This document shows positions 1-12,913 of a DNA stretch of 64,000 nt, piece by piece. Source of the stretch: an uncultured Dehalococcoidales bacterium (GTDB lineage: Bacteria > Chloroflexota > Dehalococcoidia > Dehalococcoidales > E44-bin46); NCBI GenBank assembly GCA_964627215.1, contig CAZVIZ010000001.1, forward strand, positions 6,635 through 70,634, read 5' to 3'. Made by a program: the position numbers and the translations under genes. The notes under the pieces are model-generated. The model had not been told where the DNA came from, did not search any database, and worked only from the letters and a program-made list of their open reading frames with translations. Each line of letters starts with the position of its first letter. Position 1 is the stretch's first letter.

Positions 1-733
1 GGGGGACGAAGTTCATCACCCTTATCTGGTGAGCCCCCATGCGATGCATCTCCTCTATGGAGCAGGCTATGTCTTCCAGGGTTTCGCCCACCCCGGATAG
101 TATGCCTTCCTCTATCAGCACGCCCAACTGGGCGACCTTGTACTTCCGATTGAGTCTCTCATCGTAGCGCTGGTTCAGGCGGAGCTGATGGTAGAGCTTG
201 CGGTTGTGCGTCTCCTGGTAGCAGGCATACCACTCAACCCCGGTCTCAAAAAGCTCCTTGAGCACTGCGTCCGGCATTACGCCGGCGGATATCATCATGG
301 GCAGCGCTATATCCCGCCTGACCTGCTTCACCAGCTCCAGCAGGGGGGCGAAGCCGTCCTCCTTGCGGTAGAAGTAGGGGTCTTCGCCCATGGTCAGGTC
401 TAGGAGGTGGACGCCGGATTGGGCCAGCTCCTGGGCCGCGGCCATCACCTGCTCGGGCGTCTTGCGGTAACGCTCGCACAAGCGGTTTGAGCGGCGGTAG
501 GAGCAGAAGGCACAGTCGTTGCGACACCAGGTGGAGAAATACAGGAACCCATACAGGAACACGGCATCGCCGAAATGACGATGCCTTATGCTCCTCGCCG
601 TTTCAAAGAGGCGCTCTATATCTTCGCGACTCTCAAGGCTGAGTAAATGAAGTATCTCCTCCCGGCTCAATCGCTCTTCGGCATATGCTTTATCCAGTAT
701 CTCCTCTAAGCGAGAACGGGAGCTTTGACTCAT
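1..733 (-). CDS. pylB: Methylornithine synthase PylB (radical SAM), 3' end outside the window
   Basis: Manual translation from ATG 733, open to the window edge: FLYGFLYFSTWCRNDCAFCSYR (CxxxCxxC), GVHLLDLTMGED, WYACYQETHN, LIEEGILSGVGE, QIRVMNFVP, all PylB-like; pylS lies two genes upstream. Confidence 0.93.
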   Translation of the reverse strand, partial: MSQSSRSRLEEILDKAYAEERLSREEILHLLSLESREDIERLFETARSIRHRHFGDAVFLYGFLYFSTWCRNDCAFCSYRRSNRLCERYRKTPEQVMAAAQELAQSGVHLLDLTMGEDPYFYRKEDGFAPLLELVKQVRRDIALPMMISAGVMPDAVLKELFETGVEWYACYQETHNRKLYHQLRLNQRYDERLNRKYKVAQLGVLIEEGILSGVGETLEDIACSIEEMHRMGAHQIRVMNFVP

Positions 734-756
734 CACGGTATTCTTTTCTGCTCTGG

Positions 757-1398
757 TTATGACGTCAGTTCTTTTATCTTGTTTACGCCGTCCACTGCGC
801 TCTCGGCGTATGCGCTGGCACCTATGCGGTCGGCCCAGGGCTGGCTTACCGGTGCTCCACCGACGATGGTCTTGACGTCCATCCCGGCCTCGTTGAGCAT
901 ATCGATAAGTACCTTCTGGTTCTCCATAGTGGTGGTCAGCAGCGCGCTGGCTCCGACAACGTCGGCGTTAACTTCCTTGACCTTGTCTATGAATTTCTGC
1001 ATGGGCACGTCCCTGCCTATGTCATGAACCTCAAAGCCGTTGGCCATTAAGAACGATACTACAATGGATTTGCCGATGTCATGGACGTCGCCTTCTACGG
1101 TGCCGATGACGACGACCTTCTTCTTGGCCTCGCTCTCGCCCTTGGGCAGTGCGGCCTGACAGGCGGAGGAGCCGGCCTTCATAGCCTCGGCGGCCAGCAT
1201 GAGCTCGGGGAGGAATATCCTGCCCTTGTCGAACATATCGCCGACCTCGGTGATGCCGATGACGAAACCTTCATTAATTAGCAGAGCGGGGTCAACGCCG
1301 GCGTCGATCCCTTCCTTGGCTATGGCCTCTGCTGCGGCCTTGTCATAGTCAATGATAGCCTTCTTCGCCTTCTCTAAAATCGCTTTCTGGTCTGCCAT
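757..1398 (-). CDS. Methyltransferase cognate corrinoid protein (MtmC/MtbC/MttC family)
   Basis: B12 cap domain (FLPELMLAAEAM) plus DxHxxG motif GTVEGDVHDIGK, SALLTTTM and GGAP; AGGAGG RBS. Confidence 0.92.
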   Translation of the reverse strand: MADQKAILEKAKKAIIDYDKAAAEAIAKEGIDAGVDPALLINEGFVIGITEVGDMFDKGRIFLPELMLAAEAMKAGSSACQAALPKGESEAKKKVVVIGTVEGDVHDIGKSIVVSFLMANGFEVHDIGRDVPMQKFIDKVKEVNADVVGASALLTTTMENQKVLIDMLNEAGMDVKTIVGGAPVSQPWADRIGASAYAESAVDGVNKIKELTS

Positions 1399-1521
1399 TT
1401 AGTATAAACCCTCCTTTGCTGTTTTTGTATTCCACCACCACTCCCAGCACTAGCTTATCAGTAAACCGACCTTGGTGCTGTTTTTATGCCATAAGGTTTT
1501 CCCTCCTTAGAACCTTAAAGG

Positions 1522-2361
1522 TTATATGTTCAACCTGACTCCATCTAGGTATATGAGGCTTCTCGCCGTGCGCTGAATATTCTTATAGCCCTGCTTTATC
1601 ATCGCCAGTCTCTCCAACCCCATGCCTATGCCTACCCAGGGGTCGAATATACTCCAAGCATCATCCAGTGGATGAGGTCCCATCGCGGCCGAGCACAGCT
1701 CCGTGCCGGATTGGGATAAGACGTCCGTTGTCTCCCCGTATACGTCGCAATGGTCACTCACCACGCGGTAGTTATCTATGCCCACTGTATTCATCACTAT
1801 GCCGATAAGCTCCGTTAGCCGTTCCTTCCGGGACTCCAGAGGCAGGCCCATCTCCACCAGGTTCAGCATGGTGAACTCATTCAGGTGCTCACTGCCCTGG
1901 GTGTCCTTGCGGAAGCAGGGGCCCGCTTCGAAGATGCGTATAGGCTTGGGCCATAGGCGCCCCAGCCGCCTCATCATCTGGTATAGGTTAGGGGCCAGCA
2001 TGGGCCTTAAGCACTTGTTCTTTCCCTGCCAGAAGACCTGAGAGGTCAGAGGGCAGGAATCGGTGATGGTCATTTTCTCCAGGGAGTCCTTGGATATAAT
2101 GATGGGGGTGGAAACCTGTACAAAGCCCTCCTCCACAAGCCTGTCGGCGAGGGCACGCTCTATCTGGTACACGGAAGGACGGCGGTGGCTCAGGCGTAGG
2201 TCATTAGCGCGTTGCCTCTCCTCCTCCACCAGTTCCTTCTCCATCGCCTTGAAGCTCTCATCCCTCTCTTGGGCATCCTGGAATACCTTTTCCGCCCAAG
2301 TGATGTCAGCGTCCAACTCCCGCAGGCGTTGCTTCTGCGTCTCTGTTAAGCTAATGGACAT
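1522..2361 (-). CDS. pylS: Pyrrolysyl-tRNA synthetase catalytic subunit PylSc
   Basis: QRLREL N-terminus, SQVFW, LRPMLAPNLY, GPCFRK, HLNEFTMLNLVE, GLERL, YLDGVRLNI. Start moved to ATG 2361 because the longer track ORF runs through the promoter. Confidence 0.96.
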   Translation of the reverse strand: MSISLTETQKQRLRELDADITWAEKVFQDAQERDESFKAMEKELVEEERQRANDLRLSHRRPSVYQIERALADRLVEEGFVQVSTPIIISKDSLEKMTITDSCPLTSQVFWQGKNKCLRPMLAPNLYQMMRRLGRLWPKPIRIFEAGPCFRKDTQGSEHLNEFTMLNLVEMGLPLESRKERLTELIGIVMNTVGIDNYRVVSDHCDVYGETTDVLSQSGTELCSAAMGPHPLDDAWSIFDPWVGIGMGLERLAMIKQGYKNIQRTARSLIYLDGVRLNI

Positions 2362-2452
2362 AGCGATAAAACTCTTGTTATGGTTAGAGCCGAATCCCGA
2401 CCGGTGATTCCAAAAAAAGCAACACTTCCCCTTCCCGACAACATCCGCAGCA

Positions 2453-2481
2453 AGTATACCCCACCCCCTGTTAGCTGTCAA
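2453..2481 (-). promoter_or_regulatory. Sigma70-type promoter of the pyl operon
   Basis: TTGACA-N17-TATACT on the minus strand. Confidence 0.8.
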
Positions 2482-2530
2482 GATAACCCACCGGTGCAGC
2501 ATATGGGGCTGTGACGGCCTTGAAAAGACA

Positions 2531-2893: not shown

Positions 2894-3802
2894 TTAGGAC
2901 ATTATAGACTTGGCATTAGCCCCTAGTATGTTTGCCTTGTCCTTTGGATGTATGTCCAGGCCCTCTATGGCGGCCACAGATGCTGCTATGTCGGGGTTGC
3001 CGGGGTAGTCGCTGCCCCACAGCACATGCTCCGCCCCCACCATATCCAGGGTGCACATAAGGGCATGGGGGGAGGTGGCGCCGCTGGTGTCCACGTATAT
3101 CTGCTTCAGGTACTGGCTGGGTAGGCCTTGGAGGTCCTCGGTGAAGTTCCGCCCTCTGAGCATCTTATATACGCTGTCAAACCTCTCTTTGATGAAGGGC
3201 ATCACCCCGCCGAAGTGAGCGAAGACGAATTTCAAGCCGGGGTGTTTCCTGAACACGCCGCCGGTAATAAGCCTGCCGATGCACATTGTGGTATCGAAGA
3301 CGAACTCTATCACCGGCGTTAGCAGGGGGTGATCCACCCTCTCCAGGCCGATGGGGCCGATGGTCTGGGGGTGGACGAAGATGGGTATGTCTTCCCTCTC
3401 CGCCCTCTGGTATAGGGATTCGAACAGGTCGTCGTCCAGGTAGATCCCCTCGAAGCTGGTGGCCAGGGATATAGCCTTGAAGCCCAGGGCCTCGGTGGCG
3501 CGCTGGAACTCCTCCGCCATGCTTTGAGGGTCGTCCAGAGGCAGTATGGCGGCGCCGACGAACCTGCCGGGGTATCGGGTCACCACGTCGGCTATGGCAT
3601 CGTTATAGACTTGCGCCACCTCTTTGGAGCCGCCCATCTGGCGGTAGGCGTCGCTGGTGGGGTAGAGCAGCAGGGCTTTATCTATGTTAAAGCGGTCCAT
3701 AAGCCCCAACTGTCCTTCTATATCTCCCCAGGCGGGGGAGAAGAAGTGCGCCTTGTCTATAATATCCTTGGGTAGCCAGTGGCTGTGTGCGTCGAACATC
3801 AC
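2894..3802 (-). CDS. Amidohydrolase_2 family protein (ACMSD/aromatic acid decarboxylase-like)
   Basis: DAHSH, FVHP, AHFGG and WGSDYP metal-binding motifs; last gene of the PKS operon. Confidence 0.85.
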   Translation of the reverse strand: MMFDAHSHWLPKDIIDKAHFFSPAWGDIEGQLGLMDRFNIDKALLLYPTSDAYRQMGGSKEVAQVYNDAIADVVTRYPGRFVGAAILPLDDPQSMAEEFQRATEALGFKAISLATSFEGIYLDDDLFESLYQRAEREDIPIFVHPQTIGPIGLERVDHPLLTPVIEFVFDTTMCIGRLITGGVFRKHPGLKFVFAHFGGVMPFIKERFDSVYKMLRGRNFTEDLQGLPSQYLKQIYVDTSGATSPHALMCTLDMVGAEHVLWGSDYPGNPDIAASVAAIEGLDIHPKDKANILGANAKSIMS

Positions 3803-4572
3803 TTCTCCGGGTGGGCTTGCTTGTAGGGGATTATGGGCTTGGTCCAGGGGGTGCGCTGGTTGATGACCGATATCTCCAGGGGGCAGACGTTGGCCGGCAC
3901 GGTGAGGGCGAACTTGACCGCATCGGCTATGGTGGTGCCCTTCATGAGGCGCTCCTTGTCCACCGATATCGCCTCAAGTCCTCCGGTGAGGGCGGTGTCA
4001 GTGACGCCGGGCATTATGGAGGTAACCTTGACGCCCGTGTCGCGTATCTCCCAGAAGAGCCCCTTGCCGAAGGACCTTAGTGCCCGCTTTAAGGAGGAAT
4101 ATACTATGAAGCCGCGGGGTGGAGGGTCAACTATTGTGGAGCCGGAGGTGATGTTTACCACCGTCCCCGCCTTGTTCTCAATGAAGTGGTTTATGATAAG
4201 CCTGGTGAGCATAACCGGGCCCAGGTAGTTGGTGGCCATCAGCTTGGGGATGTCCTGGGGGGGCTGCTCGTTGAAGGGGTGCTGGGAGCTTACTCCAGCG
4301 CTGTTTATGAGGGCGTCTATCCTGCCGAAGTGCTCTATGGCCTTGTTTACTAGATCCTCCAGGTCCTCCTGCTTGGTTACGTCGCAGGGGACGGGGAGTA
4401 TATCCACCTTGTGCTTATCTGCCAGGGAGTGCGCTACCTCGTTCAGTTTGTATGTCCCCCGCGCCGCCAGTGCCAGGTTCATTCCCTCCGCCGCAAGCGC
4501 TGTGGCTATGGCGTTGCCAATGCCCCTGGAGGCGCCGGTTACTATGGCGGTCTTGCCCTTTAGTTCGCTCAT
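3799..4572 (-). CDS. SDR oxidoreductase, putative polyketide ketoreductase
   Basis: TGASRGIG, NSAG and YSSLK (YxxxK); ketoreductase role inferred from context. Confidence 0.85.
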   Translation of the reverse strand: MSELKGKTAIVTGASRGIGNAIATALAAEGMNLALAARGTYKLNEVAHSLADKHKVDILPVPCDVTKQEDLEDLVNKAIEHFGRIDALINSAGVSSQHPFNEQPPQDIPKLMATNYLGPVMLTRLIINHFIENKAGTVVNITSGSTIVDPPPRGFIVYSSLKRALRSFGKGLFWEIRDTGVKVTSIMPGVTDTALTGGLEAISVDKERLMKGTTIADAVKFALTVPANVCPLEISVINQRTPWTKPIIPYKQAHPEK

Positions 4573-4576
4573 GGCC

Positions 4577-5020
4577 TTACCCCTTCTGGGCCTCTTTCTC
4601 TATAACCTCTTTAAATATCTTCATATTTTCCACGGAGTGCTTATTTATAAGCTCGGTGGCCTTGGCGTCATCAACCTTGGCGCCCTCGGCCATGGTGAAG
4701 AACTGTATCCAGGTCATTATCACACCTTCGGGGGTGGGGGTATAGAGCCAGATTAGCTTCATATACTGGAAGGGGAAGGTGGGCTCCATCTTCTGGGCAT
4801 AGGCGAAGTTGTAGTCCTTGAACAGCAGGCGGTATGACTGCCAGGAGGCGCCCTCGTTGTTGGTCAGCTGGAAGGTTAGCTTGTTGCCTTTCTTCTTCAC
4901 CACCTTGGCCTCGGTGTACTCGTCGCCGAAGAGCTCCGTCCAGCGCTCTATGTCGTTGGAGATGTCGAACACCAGGTCGTAGGGTGCGTTAATCACTATA
5001 GAATTTACTGTCTGCGCCAT
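4577..5020 (-). CDS. SRPBCC polyketide aromatase/cyclase (TcmN/WhiE-VI-like, monodomain)
   Basis: NSIVINAPYDLVFDISND..WTELF..EY, WQSYR, PFQYMKLIWLY, MTWIQFF. Confidence 0.88.
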   Translation of the reverse strand: MAQTVNSIVINAPYDLVFDISNDIERWTELFGDEYTEAKVVKKKGNKLTFQLTNNEGASWQSYRLLFKDYNFAYAQKMEPTFPFQYMKLIWLYTPTPEGVIMTWIQFFTMAEGAKVDDAKATELINKHSVENMKIFKEVIEKEAQKG

Positions 5021-5033
5021 TATTCCTCCTTGC

Positions 5034-5840
5034 TTAATCCAGAATAGCTACCACCCGCGCCCAGGCGGCGCCGGCGTTTTTTATCTTAACCGGGAAACAG
5101 GCTATCTTGAAGCCGTGGGGTTTAGGTATCTTATCCAGGTTGGCCAGTCTCTCCATATGGCAGTACTCCTTCTTCCTGCCATAGAAGTGCGCCGGCCACA
5201 GGTGGCCGGAGTCCCTGTCCTTCAGGTAGTCCTTCACCATGGCGGGTAGGGGGCGATCCAGGCTGAAGGTGTCTATGCCGATTACCCTGACCCCCTGTTC
5301 GGTTAGATATGCCACCGCTTCCGGGCTCATGGCGGGGAAGCGGACGTAGTACTCGCGCTTACCCCAAAGTTTATCGGTGCCGGTATATATGAGGACGATA
5401 TCGGCGGGCTTTATGGTGTAGTTGATTTTCTCCAGGGCCTTTTTTATGTCTGCGTTGGTGATGGCCTGGCCGGGCTTTTTATGGGATAGGTCCAGCACCA
5501 CGCCGTCTGCGTAGCACCAATCCAGGGGCACGTCCTCTATCTTCATGGCCGCCTTGCCCTCGCACGAGGGGCCGTAGTGGTAGGGGGCGTCCATATGGGT
5601 GCCGCTGTGGACGGTGGCCGTTACCCACTCCAGGGAGAGGAACAGGCCGTCCTTGAAGCTGTCCTTGTCTATTCGCTCCTTGCCTAAAGCGCGCTTTATA
5701 ATGCCCTTTATGCCCTGAGACTTAGCCCAAAGCCTGCCCAGCTTGTCGCCGCCACTGCGGTGCTCCCAGCGCGTTATTTTTATGGGGTGGGTCTCCGGGG
5801 CGGCGTCGTCCAGGGGCAGGCTGAGGTCTATGATGTTCAC
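5034..5840 (-). CDS. Cyclase family protein (DpsY/OxyN-like, kynurenine formamidase fold)
   Basis: IIDLS N-terminus, HSGTHMDAPYH, GIDTFSLD, ERLANL and WARVVA. Confidence 0.88.
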   Translation of the reverse strand: MNIIDLSLPLDDAAPETHPIKITRWEHRSGGDKLGRLWAKSQGIKGIIKRALGKERIDKDSFKDGLFLSLEWVTATVHSGTHMDAPYHYGPSCEGKAAMKIEDVPLDWCYADGVVLDLSHKKPGQAITNADIKKALEKINYTIKPADIVLIYTGTDKLWGKREYYVRFPAMSPEAVAYLTEQGVRVIGIDTFSLDRPLPAMVKDYLKDRDSGHLWPAHFYGRKKEYCHMERLANLDKIPKPHGFKIACFPVKIKNAGAAWARVVAILD

Positions 5841-6076
5841 TTTGCCAGCCTGTCTTCCACTACCTTGAGCACATCGCCAATGCTGCCCCCTGTGGAGATA
5901 GTGCCGTCGCCTATCTTGATGTTGAACTCCTTTTCCAGAGCTATAACCAGCTCCACCACCTCCAGGGAGTCCATCTCCAGGTCTTTCTTAAGGTTGGCCT
6001 GGGGGGTTATTTCCCCCGGCTTCATGTCGAAGGCCTCCACCAGAATCGCCTTTATCTTTTCCTCAACATTAGCCAC
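5837..6076 (-). CDS. Acyl carrier protein
   Basis: 79 aa, acidic, with the DLEMDSLEVVEL phosphopantetheine attachment motif. Confidence 0.93.
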   Translation of the reverse strand: MANVEEKIKAILVEAFDMKPGEITPQANLKKDLEMDSLEVVELVIALEKEFNIKIGDGTISTGGSIGDVLKVVEDRLAK

Positions 6077-6081
6077 GGCTT

Positions 6082-7290
6082 CTAGCTCCTTTCTACAGCC
6101 AAAACAGCGTTTATGCCCCCGCGTCCGCGGGAGATTATAATTGCCTTGCGTATATCAGCTTCACGAGCCTCGTTGGGCACACAGTCCAGGTCGCATTCGG
6201 GGTCATCTGTTTTGTGGTTTATGGTGGGGGGAATGATGCCGTTGCGCATCGCCAGCAGGGTGGTGATGACGTCCACCGCTCCCGATGCCCCCAGCATGTG
6301 TCCGAACATGGACTTGGGGGCGCTCACGGGTATGTTGCGCTTGCTGCCGAAGACCTCCTTTATGGCCCTGGCCTCGCTCAAGTCTCCTATGCGGGTGGCT
6401 ATGCCGTCGGCGCAGACGTAGTCTATATCCTCTGGCTTATAGCCGGCCATTTTAAGGGCGGCTCTTATTGTATCGGCCAGCTCTTTGCCTGTGGGGTTGG
6501 GGGTGATGCGGTGCGCCCCGTCGCAGGTGGAGCTGTAGCCGGTGATGAAGCCGTATATATCCGTGCCTCTCTTGAGCGCGTTCTCCTCGCTCTCCAGCGT
6601 GATAAGCCCCGCCCCCTCGCTGACCACGAAGCCGTCCCTGTCTTTATCAAAGGGGCGGTAGGGCCCGTGAGAGATGGAGCCCTCAGTGGAGCAGCACAGT
6701 AGTGCATAGGGGCTTATGGGCGCCTCCGTGCCGCCGGCCAGAGCGATGCTTATCTTCTTCTGGTCCACCACGTTTGCGGCGTATCCTATGGCCATCAACG
6801 CGCTGGCCTTATCGGATATCATCGTCTTGCTGTATCCCTTTATGCCGTATAGTATGGATATCTGTCCCTGGGGAGCGGCGGGGAACCAGGCGCTGGCCAT
6901 ATAGGGGCTTACTCCCTGCCTGCCTTCCACGTACAGGTCTCTGAGTTCGGTCTCGGCATACAGCCAACCACCCAGGGCGTTGCCCAGGAAGACGCCCACG
7001 TTGTAGGGGTCCTCTTTATCCAGGTCTATGGCGGCGTCCTTTATGGCGTGGTCGGTGGCGATGAGGCTGAATACGGAGAAGCTGTCCATCTTCTTCAAAA
7101 GGCGGAAGGACAGGCTGCCGGTGTCCAGGTCCTCCACCTGACCGGCTATCTGCGAGGGGTAGAGAGAGGCGTCGAAGCGGGTGATGGGAGAGACGAAGGA
7201 CTTGCCCTGCTTGACACCATTCCAGAAGGCCTCTTTACCCACTCCCGGTGGGGCGACTATGCCTAATCCGCTTATAGCTACTCTGTTCAC
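6082..7290 (-). CDS. Type II PKS chain-length factor (KS-beta)
   Basis: KS fold without the catalytic Cys (ISDKASA); SPYMASAWFPAAPQGQISI, YRPFD and CADG are CLF-like. GTG 7290 overlaps the KS stop (GTGA) and has a GGAG RBS. Ends in TAG. Confidence 0.88.
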   Translation of the reverse strand: MNRVAISGLGIVAPPGVGKEAFWNGVKQGKSFVSPITRFDASLYPSQIAGQVEDLDTGSLSFRLLKKMDSFSVFSLIATDHAIKDAAIDLDKEDPYNVGVFLGNALGGWLYAETELRDLYVEGRQGVSPYMASAWFPAAPQGQISILYGIKGYSKTMISDKASALMAIGYAANVVDQKKISIALAGGTEAPISPYALLCCSTEGSISHGPYRPFDKDRDGFVVSEGAGLITLESEENALKRGTDIYGFITGYSSTCDGAHRITPNPTGKELADTIRAALKMAGYKPEDIDYVCADGIATRIGDLSEARAIKEVFGSKRNIPVSAPKSMFGHMLGASGAVDVITTLLAMRNGIIPPTINHKTDDPECDLDCVPNEAREADIRKAIIISRGRGGINAVLAVERS

Positions 7291-8549
7291 TGTGGGCTCC
7301 ACCTGCTGAGCGTCATAGAGGAGTGGATGCCGGAAAAGCCGCTGCTGGTCTTTATCATATGGTCCACGTGTTTCTCCCTAGCCTTGTTAGGTATGTAGTC
7401 CAGGTCGCATTGGGGGTCGGGGACCTCCTGGTTTATGGTGGGGGGTAGGACGTCGTTTTCAAATATCAGGGCGTCGGCCACTAGCTCTATGCTGTTTGCG
7501 GCAGCCAGGGGGTGGCCTATCATGGATTTCAGTGAGCTTACGGGGACATCATATGCCCTCTTGCCGAGGACCTTCTTGTACCCGTTGGTCTCAAACACGT
7601 CGTTCTGCCTGGTTGAGCTGCCGTGGGCGTTTACGTAGTCTATCAGGTCGGGGTTCATATCGGCGTCCTTCAGCGCCAGCCTCATGGATACGGCCATCTC
7701 CTCGCCCTCGGAGGGCAGATCGGTCATATGGAAGGCGTTGTTGCAGGTGCCGAAGCCGGTTATCTCACAGTAGATATGGGCGCCGCGCTTAAGGGCGTGG
7801 GTTAGCTCCTCCACCACCAGTATGCCGCATCCCTCGGAGAGGACGAAGCCGTCTCTGGCTCCATCGAAGGGGCGAGATGCCTTTTCCGGCTCGTCGTTCC
7901 TCGTGGAGAGGACGTTTATCACGTCGAAGGCGGCAAAGGTTATGGGGCACAGCGGTGCCTCGGAGGCGCCGGTTATCATCACGTCTGCCTCTCCGTGCTG
8001 TATAAGCTCAAAGGAGTAGCCCACGGCGTCAGTGCCCGCGGTGCACCCTGTAGAGACGGTGGTGCATATGCCCTTGAAGCCCTGCTTGGCGGCTATCTCG
8101 CTGGAGGGGGTGTTGAACATAGAGGCGTCATAGAGGTGAGGTCTGGCCTTGCGGGGGTCTATGGGTTCCGTTCCGCCGTTGGTCACGCGCAGGAACTCCT
8201 CCTCCATATAGCGGGTGCCGCAGATGGCGTTGGCCAGGGAGACGCCGACGCGGCTGCGATCCACGCCGTTCAGGTGGAGCTTGGAGTCCTCCATGGCCTC
8301 ATGGGACGCGGCCACGGCGAATTGAACATAGCGGTCCATCCTCTCGGCATCCTCAGCGGTGAGGCCGTGAGACGCGGGGTCGAAGTCCGTTACCTGGGCT
8401 GCTATCTGAGAGTGGAACTGGGATACGTCAAAATCCTCAACCCTCTTAACGCCGGACCTGCCGCTGGACATGCCCTCCCAGAAGGCATCCTTGCCTATTC
8501 CATTGGGGGATATAACCCCCAGACCGGTTACGACCACTCTATTTTTCAT
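7287..8549 (-). CDS. Type II PKS ketosynthase (KS-alpha)
   Basis: Catalytic Cys in VSTGCTAGTDA, NAHGSST, KSMIGHP, DLDYIPN; immediately followed by CLF and ACP. Confidence 0.92.
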   Translation of the reverse strand: MKNRVVVTGLGVISPNGIGKDAFWEGMSSGRSGVKRVEDFDVSQFHSQIAAQVTDFDPASHGLTAEDAERMDRYVQFAVAASHEAMEDSKLHLNGVDRSRVGVSLANAICGTRYMEEEFLRVTNGGTEPIDPRKARPHLYDASMFNTPSSEIAAKQGFKGICTTVSTGCTAGTDAVGYSFELIQHGEADVMITGASEAPLCPITFAAFDVINVLSTRNDEPEKASRPFDGARDGFVLSEGCGILVVEELTHALKRGAHIYCEITGFGTCNNAFHMTDLPSEGEEMAVSMRLALKDADMNPDLIDYVNAHGSSTRQNDVFETNGYKKVLGKRAYDVPVSSLKSMIGHPLAAANSIELVADALIFENDVLPPTINQEVPDPQCDLDYIPNKAREKHVDHMIKTSSGFSGIHSSMTLSRWSPQ

Positions 8550-9156
8550 TTTCCTCCACCCTTCTTGCCGAGAATCTTATCTTAGCCCCGTCGGGGCAGG
8601 TGATGCGGTCGTTGCTGATACCGTCCTTGGAGAAGGGGAAGACGGCCCCGAAGTTCAGGGCGAACAGCACCGGGAAGATGGCGTTGTAGGCCGCCCCGCA
8701 GAAGCCGCCGGGCAGCTTCAAGCCCGTGAAGGTGAATTTATCCCCCGGTTTGTAGCCGAAGACGCAGTGGCCGATAACCTCCTCCACGCCTATCTCCAGT
8801 TTCTTAGGGCTGGGCTTGTAGTCCTTGGGTTTGGGTTTGAACTCCACCTCCCCCGATGGTGTCAGCACCTCGGTGAGGAACTCCACCCCGCCAGCGTCGG
8901 GGCAGAAGGTGCGCATGGAGCGGGTATTTTCGTTGAAGGGGAACTCCGCCCCGAAGGAGAGCGCGTATAAGACTGGGAAAAGCACCGTGCTAGCCCCCTG
9001 ACAGAAGTTCTCAGGGACGTGGGTGAAGTCCTTTAGTATGAACTGGTCACCCTCTTTGTAGCCCCGATAGCACCTCCCCGCCAACTTGGCCACGGTTACC
9101 CTCAAGGGTACATCGTGGCTGTCGTTGCTCATTGTCTTTTCGGAATCCTTTGCCAT
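8539..9156 (-). CDS. Tandem TIGR04076-like domain protein
   Basis: Two internal repeats of the form G.C..GYK.GD.F...P..FC..A...FP.L.AL.FG..FPF...CPD. Confidence 0.75.
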   Translation of the reverse strand: MAKDSEKTMSNDSHDVPLRVTVAKLAGRCYRGYKEGDQFILKDFTHVPENFCQGASTVLFPVLYALSFGAEFPFNENTRSMRTFCPDAGGVEFLTEVLTPSGEVEFKPKPKDYKPSPKKLEIGVEEVIGHCVFGYKPGDKFTFTGLKLPGGFCGAAYNAIFPVLFALNFGAVFPFSKDGISNDRITCPDGAKIRFSARRVEENEK

Positions 9157-9159
9157 TGG

Positions 9160-10158
9160 TTAACCCCCAACCTCGCTTATAATCTCTTGTGGGGAGAGAA
9201 ATCCCCCTCCCTGCTCCACCTTGTGCACCATCTCCACCAGCCTGCGGTTCAATGGCGCCGGTGTGCCTATCTCATCACCTAAACGGACTACCTCCCCGTT
9301 GAAGTAGTCTATCTCCGATGGTTTGCCTCGCTTTATACTCTGCAGTATGGAGCCGTATAGCGGCTCTCGGCTTAAATTAGTCATCATTTGGGAGAATATA
9401 CGGCTCGCTTCCTCTAGGGGCATCTCCGTAAGCCCCTTAATCCTCTCCTTTGGAAAATCGGGCAAAGACGTTAATTTTATACCTGCTTGGCCTACAACTG
9501 TCAATGCCTCTCCCAGAAGTCTTATGCTTATGCGGCACAGATCCACGCTTGCGAAGGTCTCCTGCATGCTGAGTCCTGTAAGAGCCGGCAGGCAGTTATT
9601 CATGTTGAGGAACAACTTCAGCCATTTCATTCCCATTATGTTGGGGGTGGGGTGGACGGTGAAAGCCGTGCTCAGCACGGCGGCGGCGGATTTAAGCCCA
9701 TCGTCCTCGGGGGCGAAGGCCCTGCCCAGCGCCCAGCCGCCCTCGAAGTTGTGCACCACGCAGCCCGGTTCTAAGTAAGTGGAGCCGAACAGCACCACGC
9801 TTGATATTATTCTGCCCCGGTCTATGATCCCCGCCAGCATCTCCTCCGCTCGTACCCCGTTTTGCACAGTGAGCACGTAGGGGTCCTTAAGCGCTGGCAG
9901 GTTTAGCTCCACGGCGGGGGTGATGTCCTGCGTCTTCACCGAGAGCACCACCAGGTCTGCGCCCGGCTCAAGTTTTTCCACAGCGTTTACCTTAACCGTT
10001 TTCTCGCCCCGCACCCCGCTTATTTTGAGGCCGTTCGCCTTTATGGCGGCGATGTCCTTCTCCCTTGCCGCCAGCGCCACGTCCACGCCCTTATCGGCAA
10101 GGTATGCGGCCACCAGGCCGCCTATGGCCCCTGCTCCTATAACTGCTACGCGGTTTAT
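9160..10158 (-). CDS. Ketopantoate reductase (ApbA/PanE) family protein with probable ATA start
   Basis: VKTQD, QNGV, KWLKLFLN, SILQSI and SEIDYFNGEVV motifs. The Rossmann motif RVAVIGAGAIGG lies upstream of the track's GTG 10113, in frame with ATA 10158. Confidence 0.85.
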   Translation of the reverse strand: MNRVAVIGAGAIGGLVAAYLADKGVDVALAAREKDIAAIKANGLKISGVRGEKTVKVNAVEKLEPGADLVVLSVKTQDITPAVELNLPALKDPYVLTVQNGVRAEEMLAGIIDRGRIISSVVLFGSTYLEPGCVVHNFEGGWALGRAFAPEDDGLKSAAAVLSTAFTVHPTPNIMGMKWLKLFLNMNNCLPALTGLSMQETFASVDLCRISIRLLGEALTVVGQAGIKLTSLPDFPKERIKGLTEMPLEEASRIFSQMMTNLSREPLYGSILQSIKRGKPSEIDYFNGEVVRLGDEIGTPAPLNRRLVEMVHKVEQGGGFLSPQEIISEVGG

Positions 10159-12026
10159 TTGGTCAACCCCAGGCTGGCGATAGTCTCGTCGGTCGGCCTG
10201 CCCTGGCTGTCCCAGCCATGTAAATCGTAATATTCGTCCAGCATGCCCTCAAAGCTGTCTCGGTCCAGCATTGTCCTGGCTTGGTCGGGCTTGAGCCCTT
10301 CCTTCCACACAAAAGGCTCGAAGTAGCGCTGTGGAGGCAGGTCGTCCTTGCGGGTGATGCCCTCCCTGGTCAGGAACATTCGTTCCAGGGTTGTTATCCT
10401 CCGCCCCACGTCAAACACCTCGTCGGGGGTTATCTCTATTCCGGTGGTAGAGGCTATTAGCTTGGAGAAAAAGGCGTAATCGAATACCCCCGGCTGGCAG
10501 GCCAGGGCTATTTGCTTGCATGTACCCAGTGCGTCGAACAGGGAGAGGTATATCTCGCGCCACCAGATCACCCTGCCCTTGCCCGTGTAGCTCTTGGGGT
10601 CGGAGGCGACCCTCCCGCCGTATAGAGCGGTCAGCTCTTCCTCGGGGAGGTTGAATGCCTCCCAGGTGGGTCTGGCGCGGAGGTGGTCCGAACCCCTGGA
10701 GGCTACGGCGTTGCCCAGGGCATAGGCGGGGAAGTAGCGCAGGTCCACCGGGTCCGACTGGGGGAGGTATTTGGTCCACATCATGCGCTTGGCCGTCTCC
10801 TGTCCCAGCGTTTCCACCGCCTCTTTGGCGCCGTCGGCCAGAATGCTGCCGAAGCCGTGGCGGTGGGCGATGTGGTGTATAAGCTCTATTACGGTTTCCC
10901 CATCCCCCCACTTAAGCTCCAGGCCGCCGGTTGTGTCGCGGTTTATTACGCCGTCCTGATACAGTTCTATAGCCCAGGCGATGATGTTGGCCGTAGAGCT
11001 GGCGTCTAATCCGTAGCGGTTCAATAGCTCGTTCATCTTTAATACGGGAGCCAGCTTGCCTATGCCCAGCATGGGCCCGAAGCTGGCGAAGGTGGTGTAT
11101 TCCGGCCCCTCGCTCTCTATTTTGTCCACCTTGTAACGGTGCTGGCAGCCTACGGGGCAGGAGAAGCAGCCTTCCCGTCCCTGATAGTACTTGTCCTTGA
11201 GTATCTGGGGAGAGACGTCCTCATTTTTGTTGAAGGCGGCGGAGAGGCCGTTATAGGCCCGTCCCATCTTTATGCGGCGGTTCACCAGCAGGTATAGGTA
11301 GGGGGATCCCAGGTCCTTGAGCATCTTTACCAAGCGTTCCTCGTTAAGCTTGGCCTGAAGACCCTTTATGAGGGCGCTGAAGGCCTTGGGGTCGTGGGGC
11401 TTTATGTCGGCGTCCCCCTCCACCACCACCGCCTTGAGCCGTTTGGAGCCCATAAGGCAGCCTAGGCCGGTGCGGGCGGCGGCGTTCTTCTTGCGGTTTA
11501 TTATGCAGGCGAATCTCACCAGGTTCTCGCCCGCCTGGCCTATTGATATCGCCTGGCTTTGTGGGCCGTGGCGCTCGTCCAGGGTGGCGTTGGTGTCCGT
11601 GGTTGAACCGCCCCACAGGTCGCTGGCGTCCTCTATGCTTATGCCGTCAGGGGTAACGTGTAGATAGACCGGTGTCTCAGCCTGGCCGGTTACTACCAGG
11701 TAGTCTATGCCGGTTCGCTTCATATGCGCCCCGAAATAGCCGCCGATGTTGGCGTCTCCCAGCAGCCCTGTCTCAGGAGATTTGGCCGAGATGTTGGCAC
11801 GCGCGGCGCTTATGCCCTTTAATCCGGTTAAAAGCCCGGGCCCGATGATGAGGGGATTAGCGGGGGATAGGGGGGTGGTTTGGGGGGTTACGTGGCGATA
11901 GAGGAGATACATATTCACGCCCCGACCGCCCAGGAGCTTTCTGGTTACCTCGTCGGGGACATTTTGAATGTCCGCCTGCCTTGTGGTCAGGTCTAGTCTA
12001 GCAACCCTTTGAGGGAGCATCGTCAT
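10155..12026 (-). CDS. Aldehyde:ferredoxin oxidoreductase (W/Mo-pterin WOR family)
   Basis: LGGRG, KSPETG, AARTGLGCLMGSKRLKA, CFSCPVGC and DALGTC 4Fe-4S ligands, RGSDH, YYDLHGWD..GRP. Confidence 0.93.
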   Translation of the reverse strand: MTMLPQRVARLDLTTRQADIQNVPDEVTRKLLGGRGVNMYLLYRHVTPQTTPLSPANPLIIGPGLLTGLKGISAARANISAKSPETGLLGDANIGGYFGAHMKRTGIDYLVVTGQAETPVYLHVTPDGISIEDASDLWGGSTTDTNATLDERHGPQSQAISIGQAGENLVRFACIINRKKNAAARTGLGCLMGSKRLKAVVVEGDADIKPHDPKAFSALIKGLQAKLNEERLVKMLKDLGSPYLYLLVNRRIKMGRAYNGLSAAFNKNEDVSPQILKDKYYQGREGCFSCPVGCQHRYKVDKIESEGPEYTTFASFGPMLGIGKLAPVLKMNELLNRYGLDASSTANIIAWAIELYQDGVINRDTTGGLELKWGDGETVIELIHHIAHRHGFGSILADGAKEAVETLGQETAKRMMWTKYLPQSDPVDLRYFPAYALGNAVASRGSDHLRARPTWEAFNLPEEELTALYGGRVASDPKSYTGKGRVIWWREIYLSLFDALGTCKQIALACQPGVFDYAFFSKLIASTTGIEITPDEVFDVGRRITTLERMFLTREGITRKDDLPPQRYFEPFVWKEGLKPDQARTMLDRDSFEGMLDEYYDLHGWDSQGRPTDETIASLGLTK

Positions 12027-12042
12027 CTCTATAGACCGTGGA

Positions 12043-12226
12043 TATCCCTAATCCGTGCCAGTGGATGGAGGATAGCCTTTTAAACCTGGGACGATTCAAT
12101 CACAGCACAATACCCTATGCCGAAATCCGGGAAACTAGAGAGCAGGCTTGTTGCAACCCATATAACCTGCGCTCCGAATATCGCGACTTCGGTCAACCAT
12201 TGGTCTTACCGAAAGTAAATCCCAGG
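12043..12226 (-). ncRNA. Candidate structured cis-regulatory leader of the AOR/PKS operon
   Basis: Closing stem 12220-12226/12085-12091 encloses four hairpins, and a further hairpin lies at 12043-12074; family not recognised. Confidence 0.5.
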
Positions 12227-12234
12227 GTGGTTGG

Positions 12235-12263
12235 AGTATAACCGCCGTGGTGGTTTTTGTCAA
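12235..12263 (-). promoter_or_regulatory. Sigma70-type promoter of the AOR/PKS operon
   Basis: TTGACA-N17-TATACT on the minus strand. Confidence 0.8.
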
Positions 12264-12280
12264 CCTGTGGGTCAGATGTA

Positions 12281-12913
12281 TTACAAGTCGCCGAAGACGT
12301 TGGGGGCCAGCCTTGCCATGATGCGGCGTATCTCCTCGGCCAGGGCCCTTATCTCAGGCAGCGCCCGCCTGCCTGCGCGCAGCTTGATGAAGTGCCTTAT
12401 CTCCCGGAAGTTCATCGTCATCACCACCTGCGTCTCGCAGGAGCCAGGCAGCACGTAGCGGGCTATCTCCGCCTTTACGCCCATATCTAAAAGCTTCTTG
12501 TAGGCCTCCCAGGCGTCATCCATGGCCTTGCGATAAGCCTTTAGGCCGTCTTGGCCCGCCCTCTCCTCCACCTCCGGCGGCAGGATATACCTTGGTTCCG
12601 TCTCCTTGCAGTAGCGCTGACTGCGCTGGCTGTAGCTGGCCAGGCGGTGGCGCACCAGCTCGTGGGTCAGCACGCGGCTGGCCCTGATGTAGAAGCTGGC
12701 TGAGGCGTGCTCTATGATGGACTCGTGGCCCACTTCTATCCACTCGGCTATGCGGTGCGGTATGGTGCCCATCTTGTCTGTGGAGTCCCAGCACAGCCTG
12801 CCGGCGTATTCTATCAGCTGTTCGGAGGGGGCGGTCTGGGGGGCGCCGCCCAGCTCCTGGGGGAGGCCGGTTACGGCCAGCAGCTTGACCTCTATATCGT
12901 AGCCTTCACTCAT
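12281..12913 (-). CDS. thyX: FAD-dependent thymidylate synthase
   Basis: GHESIIEH, HELVRHRLASYSQRSQRY and ARYVLP motifs. Confidence 0.96.
   Translation of the reverse strand: MSEGYDIEVKLLAVTGLPQELGGAPQTAPSEQLIEYAGRLCWDSTDKMGTIPHRIAEWIEVGHESIIEHASASFYIRASRVLTHELVRHRLASYSQRSQRYCKETEPRYILPPEVEERAGQDGLKAYRKAMDDAWEAYKKLLDMGVKAEIARYVLPGSCETQVVMTMNFREIRHFIKLRAGRRALPEIRALAEEIRRIMARLAPNVFGDL

Follow-up and report, generated by a model that had tools for sequence, protein, structure and literature searches.

A predicted aromatic type II polyketide synthase operon headed by an aldehyde:ferredoxin oxidoreductase in an uncultured Dehalococcoidales bacterium

Results and Discussion

We analysed a stretch of 64,000 nucleotides (hereafter the window) from an uncultured Dehalococcoidales bacterium (assembly GCA_964627215.1, contig CAZVIZ010000001.1, positions 6,635 to 70,634), in which ten co-directional open reading frames (ORFs) stand in a row on the minus strand (12026..2894). 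They are closely spaced and form a single unit headed by a dedicated aldehyde:ferredoxin oxidoreductase (AOR), and the predicted products of the others make up an intact, basal-type aromatic type II polyketide synthase (PKS) cassette. The AOR belongs to a distinct subfamily found only beside this PKS, and the comparison of loci shows the partnership to be real and specific. The PKS family has already been catalogued, while its partnership with an AOR looks new, being undescribed as far as our searches reach. As to function, we regard it as about evenly balanced that the AOR would convert an aldehyde to an acid, passing the electrons to ferredoxin, on the supply side of the aromatic PKS, and would not be a stand-in for an oxygenase.

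Nearly all aromatic type II polyketides known come from aerobes, in which oxygenases carry out the tailoring. The present cassette is complete and of the aromatic type, and it is retained by a marine member of the Dehalococcoidales whose genome measures about 1 Mb; it is also found in about a quarter of the sampled Omnitrophota and in Candidatus (Ca.) Desulfofervidus, a partner in methane-oxidising consortia. An AOR subfamily specific to the PKS gives a tangible starting point for asking how aromatic polyketides are fed or finished in strict anaerobes, and since Ca. Desulfofervidus, which holds one copy, is kept in enrichment culture, the question is testable.

Organisation of the operon

The genes follow in the order AOR, PanE-like reductase, tandem TIGR04076 protein, ketosynthase (KS) alpha, KS-beta or chain length factor (CLF), acyl carrier protein (ACP), PF04199 cyclase, TcmN-type aromatase/cyclase (ARO/CYC), short-chain dehydrogenase/reductase (SDR) and amidohydrolase_2 (coordinates in Table 1), and at their junctions they either overlap by 4–16 nt or leave gaps of 3–13 nt. 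An earlier reading made from the letters alone (the sequence-only reading) had described a ten-gene operon of these families with genes overlapping or at most 13 nt apart; the span and the spacing are borne out by the ORF coordinates, and the family assignments match Pfam and NCBIfam. The same reading had proposed one promoter, and this stands in part. A site with the sequence TTGACA-17-TATACT does lie inside the 254-nt gap (12027-12280) between thyX (12281..12913) and the AOR start, which is the sole sizeable gap upstream, and this position argues for a promoter, but the match alone is weak evidence because the scan returned 7 sites against 3.8 +/- 1.9 in shuffled sequence. For the minus strand, the same scan gave no terminator-like site. 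When the leader was compared with Rfam, no family reached its threshold (the best was snoRNA-like, with 18.8 bits against a gathering cut-off of 40).

Among the ten proteins, neither an oxygenase nor a transporter, regulator, phosphopantetheinyl transferase or acyltransferase was found with Pfam and NCBIfam. The earlier statement that these functions are missing is thus right for the ten genes, while AcpS and FabD are present elsewhere in the genome. The assembly (929,422 bases, 20 contigs, 87.8% complete) holds three KS genes, of which one is an unlinked FabF, together with one FabD and one AcpS, and malonyl transfer and ACP activation would be provided in trans by these last two. The stretch was found in seawater or marine metagenome runs of four studies, none of which is recorded as RNA.

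Identity of the ketosynthase pair

Against solved structures, KS-alpha scores highest with actinorhodin KS1 (1tqy_A, 402.5 bits, 1.7e-119) and AntD (6smo_B, 398.2 bits), with lower scores for the best FabF (344.2 bits) and the highly reducing Iga11 (6kxd_A, 210.1 bits), and it is about 50% identical to Streptomyces KS-alpha. Its motifs VSTGCTAGT, NAHGSST and GHPL align with the triad of E. coli FabF, and the same is true for all 17 KS-alpha rows of the family. In KS-beta, the Cys position is occupied by Lys in the window and in L002 (related loci are numbered from L001) and by Arg in the other 15 of the 17 rows, while Asp takes the place of the first His throughout the 17 rows, a feature shared with three Streptomyces CLFs. 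The best solved matches of KS-beta are FabFs (296.8 bits), with the actinorhodin CLF at 251 bits. Both proteins fall below the FabF model cut-off of NCBIfam (462.8 and 375.8 bits against 493.75).

A maximum-likelihood KS tree of 46 rows was made from the window and 16 related loci picked for spread, with the KS and CLF of three Streptomyces plasmids and one Azospirillum plasmid and four FabFs (that of E. coli, the genome's own and two FabF-like genes from related loci) as references. The KS-alpha family, the Azospirillum KS and the three Streptomyces KS-alpha form a clade of 21 rows (support 100/99) with the four FabFs outside it, and the split between FabF plus KS-alpha and all CLF-like rows is supported by 100/100, with KS-beta on the CLF side. 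The phylogenetic check against FabF and known CLFs that the sequence-only reading had proposed therefore places KS-alpha with the aromatic enzymes and KS-beta with the CLFs, and the identification as an aromatic type II PKS, not FabF, is sustained by the PDB scores, the tree and the TcmN-type ARO/CYC together.

The AOR and its linkage to the cassette

The closest solved structure to the AOR is that of Pyrococcus furiosus (1aor, 304.3 bits, 1.8e-89), with which it has in common the two-domain architecture, the CxxCxxxC motif, a later Cys and the active-site Glu and His; unlike the P. furiosus enzyme, the operon AOR represents a distinct subfamily found only beside a PKS. The motifs CFSCPVGC, EGPEY, GSDH and GTC are kept and align with the Fe-S Cys and the Glu/His positions of 1aor, and we take these residues to have the same roles in the active site and the Fe-S cluster as in P. 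furiosus. Ring reduction of the kind carried out by BamB (class II benzoyl-CoA reductase) was considered and ruled out, as BamB (4z3w) scores 192.3 bits (1.4e-55) against the 304.3 bits of 1aor. The AOR is the sole AFOR_N match in the window's genome, which also carries the pterin cofactor genes MoaC and MoeA; related Dehalococcoidales genomes have up to 17 AOR-family matches.

In loci L001-L008, KS-alpha is 73–81% identical to that of the window, and an AOR stands directly upstream of the core in L002, L004, L005, L007 and L008; in L001 it is interrupted by the contig end, and L006 has no upstream DNA. The flanks match the window just in L001 and L002, and they differ among L004, L005 and L007/L008. 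A search based on the AOR returned five metagenome orthologues (62–65% identity), and the cassette follows in all four of those with downstream DNA, while the next-best matches (30–37% identity) have no cassette downstream. In 41 related genomes, AOR matches of 66–100% identity are confined to the four that have the PKS (one of them cut by a contig end), and the others are at most 42% identical (the full-length ones at most 39%), figures which hold among the matches listed, the 19 weakest standing outside them. Ca. Desulfofervidus auxilii has the same arrangement, with an AOR (AMM41154) 64% identical to that of the window, a PanE-like protein (AMM41155) and KS-alpha (AMM41157).

The adjacency of AOR and PKS which the sequence-only reading had noticed is therefore conserved and specific. 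As a property of homologous clusters in general it holds in one part and fails in another: the AOR is faithfully linked only in the Dehalococcoidia/Syntrophaceae/Desulfofervidus branch, to which it is an accessory, and it is missing from most of the family. The AOR-bearing rows do not form one clade, L005 being sister to a group that contains Omnitrophota (98/99, KS-alpha tree). An AOR that was present early and later replaced would fit this pattern, although the base of the tree is a polytomy.

Distribution of the cassette

A scan of one genome per species confirmed 403 stretches. The best 80 of them were retained, and locus counts refer to these 80. Genes at the loci were called from tblastn matches covering at least half of the query and from ORF clustering, and many loci end at contig edges. 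The 403 species genomes with family-specific matches are mostly Omnitrophota. The recurring order is PanE-(TIGR04076)-KS-alpha-KS-beta-ACP-cyclase-SRPBCC-SDR-amidohydrolase_2, and PanE is found at 77 of the 80 loci, the cyclase at 60, SRPBCC at 55, SDR at 46, the amidohydrolase at 38 and TIGR04076 at 29. KS-alpha relatives with 68–83% identity are named from Dehalococcoidales, Syntrophaceae, Omnitrophota and ‘Methanoperedenaceae’.

Closer to the window, the cassette occurs in three of nine genomes of the same family and in none of 31 others of the order, and no KS-alpha orthologue was found in 400 other sampled genomes of the same class. In the phylum of Ca. Velamenicoccus, an orthologue is present in about 70 of 301 sampled genomes (69 full ones with at least 60% identity and one partial); the scan at E <= 1e-100 gives 289 of 301, a number which includes FabFs of 44–48% identity, so the recount was made at at least 60% identity among the listed rows. 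Across the sampled Omnitrophota, KS-alpha is 60–71% identical to that of the window. The cassette is shown to be patchily spread among uncultured anaerobes, namely many Omnitrophota, a few Dehalococcoidia, Syntrophaceae and Ca. Desulfofervidus.

At three loci (L071, L072 and L080; e.g., CP070837.1), PanE, TIGR04076 and KS-alpha were found with no KS-beta, ACP or cyclase match downstream. L072 and L080 end at most about 60 nt past the match to KS-alpha, probably because the contigs stop there, while L071 has about 10 kb of downstream DNA and a KS-alpha match spanning 1385 nt against the usual ~1250, and its cluster may be split or decayed. A second observation concerns records named ‘Candidatus Methanoperedenaceae archaeon GB50/GB37’, whose KS, AOR and PanE-like proteins (P0024, P0261 and P0267) fall into the same 90% clusters as those of Ca. 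D. auxilii, and which lie on a contig of 2,539,117 bases, against 2,540,211 bases for the D. auxilii contig. Because of these shared clusters and near-equal contigs, the ‘archaeal type II PKS’ matches given in the available part of PMC10132072 may be mislabelled bacterial sequence.

What stands upstream in related loci

In most Omnitrophota loci (within L009-L079), a conserved block on the same strand is found about 2–10 kb upstream of KS-alpha, consisting of an AMP-binding ligase, PNP_UDP_1, an MtnA-like isomerase (TIGR00524, 196.6 against 185.85), a class II aldolase-SCP2 fusion, an aldehyde dehydrogenase (ALDH) and a B12-binding radical S-adenosylmethionine (SAM) protein. When the 56 loci with at least 6.5 kb of upstream DNA are considered, ALDH is present in 46, AOR in 3, neither in 7 and both in none. 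Ca. Velamenicoccus archaeovorus has the PKS, and no AFOR_N match was found in its genome. An MFS transporter gene lies inside the core in 33 of the 80 related loci.

The dihydroxyacetone phosphate (DHAP) shunt salvages 5'-deoxyadenosine and methylthioadenosine and ends in an aldehyde. By analogy, the upstream block of the Omnitrophota looks like a DHAP-shunt salvage module fused to the PKS cluster, as a phosphorylase, an MtnA-like protein, a class II aldolase and then an aldehyde-oxidising enzyme are likewise found in most of these loci; in contrast to this arrangement, the shunt-like genes of the window's genome are unlinked to the operon. We know of no link between the DHAP shunt and a PKS. 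In the AOR-type Dehalococcoidia loci L004, L007 and L008, PNP_UDP_1 stands just downstream, in L004 together with an IF-2B/MtnA-like gene, while L005 and L091 have B12-radical SAM genes ahead of the AOR, L091 having also two ligases about 40% identical to the AMP-ligase of Omnitrophota. Directly upstream of the AOR, three loci (L007 4293-6438, L008 3394-5541 and L092 7777-9923) have a FabF-like KS (408 aa) and a 289-aa gene, shown in L007 to be of the DegV family; L004 (9-785) has a DegV-family gene alone, cut by the contig start.

Proposed role of the AOR

Upstream of this core, the Omnitrophota have an NAD(P)-dependent ALDH, whose role the AOR would fill in the window. The oxidation of an aldehyde to an acid, with ferredoxin as the acceptor, would therefore be its most likely reaction. 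On the supply side, the acid could, for example, later be used as a starter, or the aldehyde could originate from DHAP-shunt salvage of radical-SAM by-products. Lys or Arg in KS-beta hints at non-classical priming, which would fit an acid starter, although the window has no ligase orthologue. The product would probably be a small, unreduced, cyclised and then decarboxylated and reduced polyphenol, made without O2.

Several points weigh against this reading. The direction and the substrate proposed for the AOR are putative, and the ALDH of the Omnitrophota may form part of the neighbouring salvage block alone, outside the PKS, since synteny in a single phylum can be mere inheritance. L003, a close Dehalococcoidales relative, has no AOR C-terminus upstream of PanE, therefore the core can apparently exist without an AOR even inside this branch (a stretch of 31 residues resembling the AOR N-terminus lies just upstream of PanE at L003 209-301, E 0.003, and may be the remnant of an AOR deletion). 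In the window's genome the MtnA-like and aldolase genes are unlinked to the operon, the operon has no acid-activating ligase and the single AMP-binding enzyme of the genome shares just 29–31% identity with the ligases linked to the cluster; how an acid would become a starter is therefore not apparent here. The active-site Gln of a CLF serves decarboxylative priming in classical type II systems; it is found in none of the 17 family rows, whereas the position is occupied by Gln in two of the three Streptomyces CLFs, by Glu in the third and by Arg in that of Azospirillum. Priming may therefore differ from textbook systems. The KS tree, finally, was made without aryl-polyene or ladderane KS.

A bolder proposal, which we hold to be improbable, is an O2-independent route to an aromatic polyketide with ferredoxin-linked conversion between aldehyde and acid in its supply or tailoring. 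Either the tungsten-type AOR would reduce the polyketide carboxylate, or the AOR (in Omnitrophota the ALDH) would provide the acid for priming a KS/CLF without Gln, by converting an aldehyde set free when the DHAP shunt salvages radical-SAM by-products. If the former were true, this would be the first AOR in PKS tailoring, and if the latter, streamlined anaerobes, syntrophs and predatory ultramicrobacteria would connect the salvage of SAM waste with the assembly of a polyketide.

Reduction as such deserves to be weighed on its own. AORs are reversible, and this one could be a ferredoxin-driven carboxylate reductase acting on the released polyketide acid, after which the SDR and/or the PanE-like protein would reduce the aldehyde to an alcohol; the tailoring would then involve a tungsten enzyme. 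The AOR is the first gene of the operon and co-inherited with the cassette, the core has two NAD(P)H reductases, and the closest solved relative of the SDR is an aldehyde-reducing SDR, clavaldehyde dehydrogenase (2jah, 2.3e-31, 112 bits), although a match of 112 bits is too distant to fix the substrate. However, the Omnitrophota keep the SDR and the PanE-like protein yet carry an ALDH, which is normally not acid-reducing, Ca. Velamenicoccus is without an AOR and the LigW-like enzyme would remove the very carboxylate in question, so we consider the reductive direction rather unlikely.

It seems less likely still that the AOR serves general aldehyde detoxification or fermentation, taking no part in the pathway and having nothing but the promoter in common with the PKS. 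A housekeeping function is conceivable for the sole AOR of a genome of ~0.93 Mb whose relatives have up to 17 matches, most of the PKS family works without an AOR, and the closest solved enzyme, that of P. furiosus, has a broad substrate range. Yet the orthologues (62–70% identity) were found only beside the PKS, across Chloroflexota, Thermodesulfobacteriota and metagenome contigs and with differing flanks, and the 37 related genomes without the PKS have, among the matches listed, paralogues of at most 42% identity alone.

The sequence-only reading had suggested that the AOR replaces oxygenase tailoring or makes the starter unit and that, as no exporter is present, the product may be a cofactor, redox carrier or pigment kept inside the cell. 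The ten genes indeed include neither an oxygenase nor an exporter, a very small genome retains a 9-kb cassette, and KS-alpha keeps 60–71% identity to that of the window across the sampled Omnitrophota. Neither a replacement of oxygenase tailoring by the AOR nor a need for it in the core chemistry is supported, however, as most of the family is without one (ALDH in 46 of the 56 loci and AOR in 3; none in Ca. Velamenicoccus). The cofactor argument is weakened by the MFS genes inside 33 of 80 related loci and by the patchy distribution (about 70 of 301 genomes in the phylum, 3 of 9 in the family, 0 of 400 in the class), which is not the pattern of an essential cofactor. We give this explanation little credence.

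A lipid, polyene or ladderane-like product of a fatty-acid-synthase-like KS pair is highly improbable, for although both KS score high on FabF models, KS-beta has FabFs as its best solved matches, B12-radical SAM genes accompany many loci and the accessible part of PMC9902471 gives ladderane-type biosynthetic gene cluster (BGC) calls in Omnitrophota, KS-alpha groups with aromatic KS-alpha in a tree with FabF and aromatic type II references, a TcmN-type ARO/CYC is present, the genome has a separate FabF, the radical SAM protein of Omnitrophota reaches 100.4 against a cut-off of 360 on the ladderane-type TIGR04072, Iga11 scores far below the actinorhodin KS1 (210.1 against 402.5 bits), the operon has no radical SAM gene and no dehydratase or enoyl reductase was found in the core with Pfam and NCBIfam.

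Comparison with known systems

The dendrubin (den), clostrubin (clr) and Photorhabdus anthraquinone (ant) clusters, which are non-actinobacterial ‘ancestral’ aromatic type II PKS clusters and some of which occur in anaerobes, have in common with the operon KS/CLF/ACP, TcmN-type and OxyN-type (PF04199) cyclases and an oxidoreductase, and Photorhabdus AntD is the second-best solved match of the operon KS-alpha. Unlike in these clusters, the ARO/CYC of the operon is monodomain and placed after the PF04199 cyclase, Lys/Arg stands in the CLF where the Cys would be, and a PanE-like protein, tandem TIGR04076, a LigW-like protein and the AOR are added, with no regulator or exporter in the window. The actinorhodin minimal PKS (1TQY) and TcmN (2RER/2REZ) give the best solved matches of KS-alpha and the SRPBCC protein, respectively; in contrast to the actinorhodin system, the CLF of the operon is without Gln and its SDR cannot be assigned with confidence to the actKR-type C-9 reductases.

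The type II PKS of Ca. D. auxilii belongs to the same gene family, its KS-alpha being in one 90% cluster with P0024, a protein 76% identical to the KS-alpha of the window. According to the available part of PMC6638757, this BGC was chosen for expression in E. coli in 2019, and it is not among the three pairs reported there as soluble. In 2023, an undescribed non-actinobacterial KS-CLF clade was catalogued with Omnitrophica, Chloroflexi and three ‘Methanoperedenaceae’ records (PMC10132072, in the part available). The idea that the PKS itself is new is thus not supported. The accessible portions of both papers treat KS/CLF only, with AOR and product unmentioned. In a literature search, ‘type II polyketide synthase’ paired with ‘aldehyde ferredoxin oxidoreductase’ was not found, which agrees with the earlier remark that no type II PKS with an AOR has been described, and literature searches on polyketides of Omnitrophota/Omnitrophica, Dehalococcoidia, Methanoperedens, Velamenicoccus and Desulfofervidus gave no product for this PKS family.

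Other proteins of the cassette

Features of the operon are collected in Table 1. The assignments of the DpsY-like cyclase, TcmN-like aromatase, SDR and amidohydrolase_2 made in the sequence-only reading were confirmed by Pfam and PDB matches. The SRPBCC protein aligns with TcmN over residues 2-146 (2rez, 4.6e-27) and is borderline in Pfam (Polyketide_cyc2, 27.0 bits against a cut-off of 27.4); it keeps the residues aligned to TcmN Y35, W65, S67 and R69, which presumably have the same roles as in TcmN. Of the 42 solved matches of the SDR at E <= 1e-20, none is named a polyketide ketoreductase. The amidohydrolase_2 protein is a LigW-like predicted decarboxylase, as its nearest solved relatives are non-oxidative decarboxylases (LigW 4inf, 1e-31; ACMSD, ~6e-28; and gamma-resorcylate decarboxylases).

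Table 1. Predicted features of the PKS operon and of the region ahead of it (window positions).
Feature	Position	Strand	Basis or remark
Sigma-70-like promoter TTGACA-17-TATACT	12235..12263	minus	11/12 matches to consensus
Leader, ~208 nt	12027..12234	minus	no recognised RNA family
AOR, 623 aa	10155..12026	minus	AFOR_N 235.1 bits and AFOR_C 327.3 bits (Pfam)
PanE/ApbA-like NAD(P)H reductase	9160..10158	minus	ApbA and ApbA_C (Pfam); start probably ATA 10158
Tandem TIGR04076 protein, 205 aa, three conserved Cys per repeat	8539..9156	minus	NCBIfam
KS-alpha, Cys-His-His intact	7287..8549	minus	Pfam ketoacyl-synt, PDB scores, alignment, tree
KS-beta / CLF-like partner; Cys to Lys, first His to Asp	6082..7302	minus	alignment, tree
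ACP, DSL motif	5837..6076	minus	PP-binding 2.1e-11; EMDSLEV
PF04199 cyclase-family protein (OxyN/DpsY type)	5034..5840	minus	Pfam; His-rich metal motif HSGTHMDAPYH
Monodomain TcmN/WhiE-type aromatase/cyclase (SRPBCC)	4577..5020	minus	PDB match to TcmN
Classical SDR	3799..4572	minus	adh_short; TGASRGIG, YSSLK
Amidohydrolase_2, LigW/ACMSD decarboxylase type	2894..3802	minus	Amidohydro_2; metal motifs DAHSHW, GSDYP

The second protein of the operon is, judged by its model scores, PanE-like and not PanE, as it passes the subfamily model TIGR00745 (147.8 against 141.35) and fails the equivalog models (e.g., 133 against 371). Its frame has no ATG, GTG or TTG ahead of the Rossmann motif GAGAIG, which would be removed by a start at GTG 10113. 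The frame is open to ATA 10158, which overlaps the TAA stop of the AOR (ATAA), and M stands at this place in five homologues, so the gene probably starts there; the stretch 10113-10158 would then imply either a non-canonical start or re-initiation, or else the protein is N-terminally crippled.

The TIGR04076 protein reaches 94.9 bits on its family model (cut-off 33), the match falling into two tandem stretches, and its matches in a protein atlas are TIGR04076 and unnamed Omnitrophota clusters alone. The structure predicted from the alignment has a pLDDT of 88.9 (40.2 from the single sequence). With this model, Foldseek found nothing in the PDB at E <= 0.001, and VIA-align gave XdhC/CoxI-like N-domains as the best hits with Z of 6.6 and 6.5, which is below the usual chance level of 7–8. 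In one paper TIGR04076 is listed next to a glycyl-radical locus.

Neighbouring genes

Directly downstream of the operon, on the minus strand (window 2..2502), lies a pyrrolysine system. Its members are a PylS C-terminal-domain protein (TIGR02367, 342.5 against 178.15 bits), a methylamine corrinoid protein resembling MtbC and a radical SAM ORF that is truncated by the window start. The orthologue of the latter in L002 (68% identical) is PylB, followed there by PylC and PylD (L002 16187-20953). The downstream B12-binding and radical SAM genes were considered as members of the cluster and ruled out, since they are pyrrolysine genes. With such a system present, in-frame TAG codons may be read as pyrrolysine in this Dehalococcoidales bacterium. 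A second TTGACA-17-TATACT, with hexamers identical to those of the operon promoter, is located on the minus strand at 2453-2481, just inside the 5' end of the pylS-like ORF; the alignments of homologues begin at residue 37–47 of this ORF, therefore its real start is probably downstream of the site.

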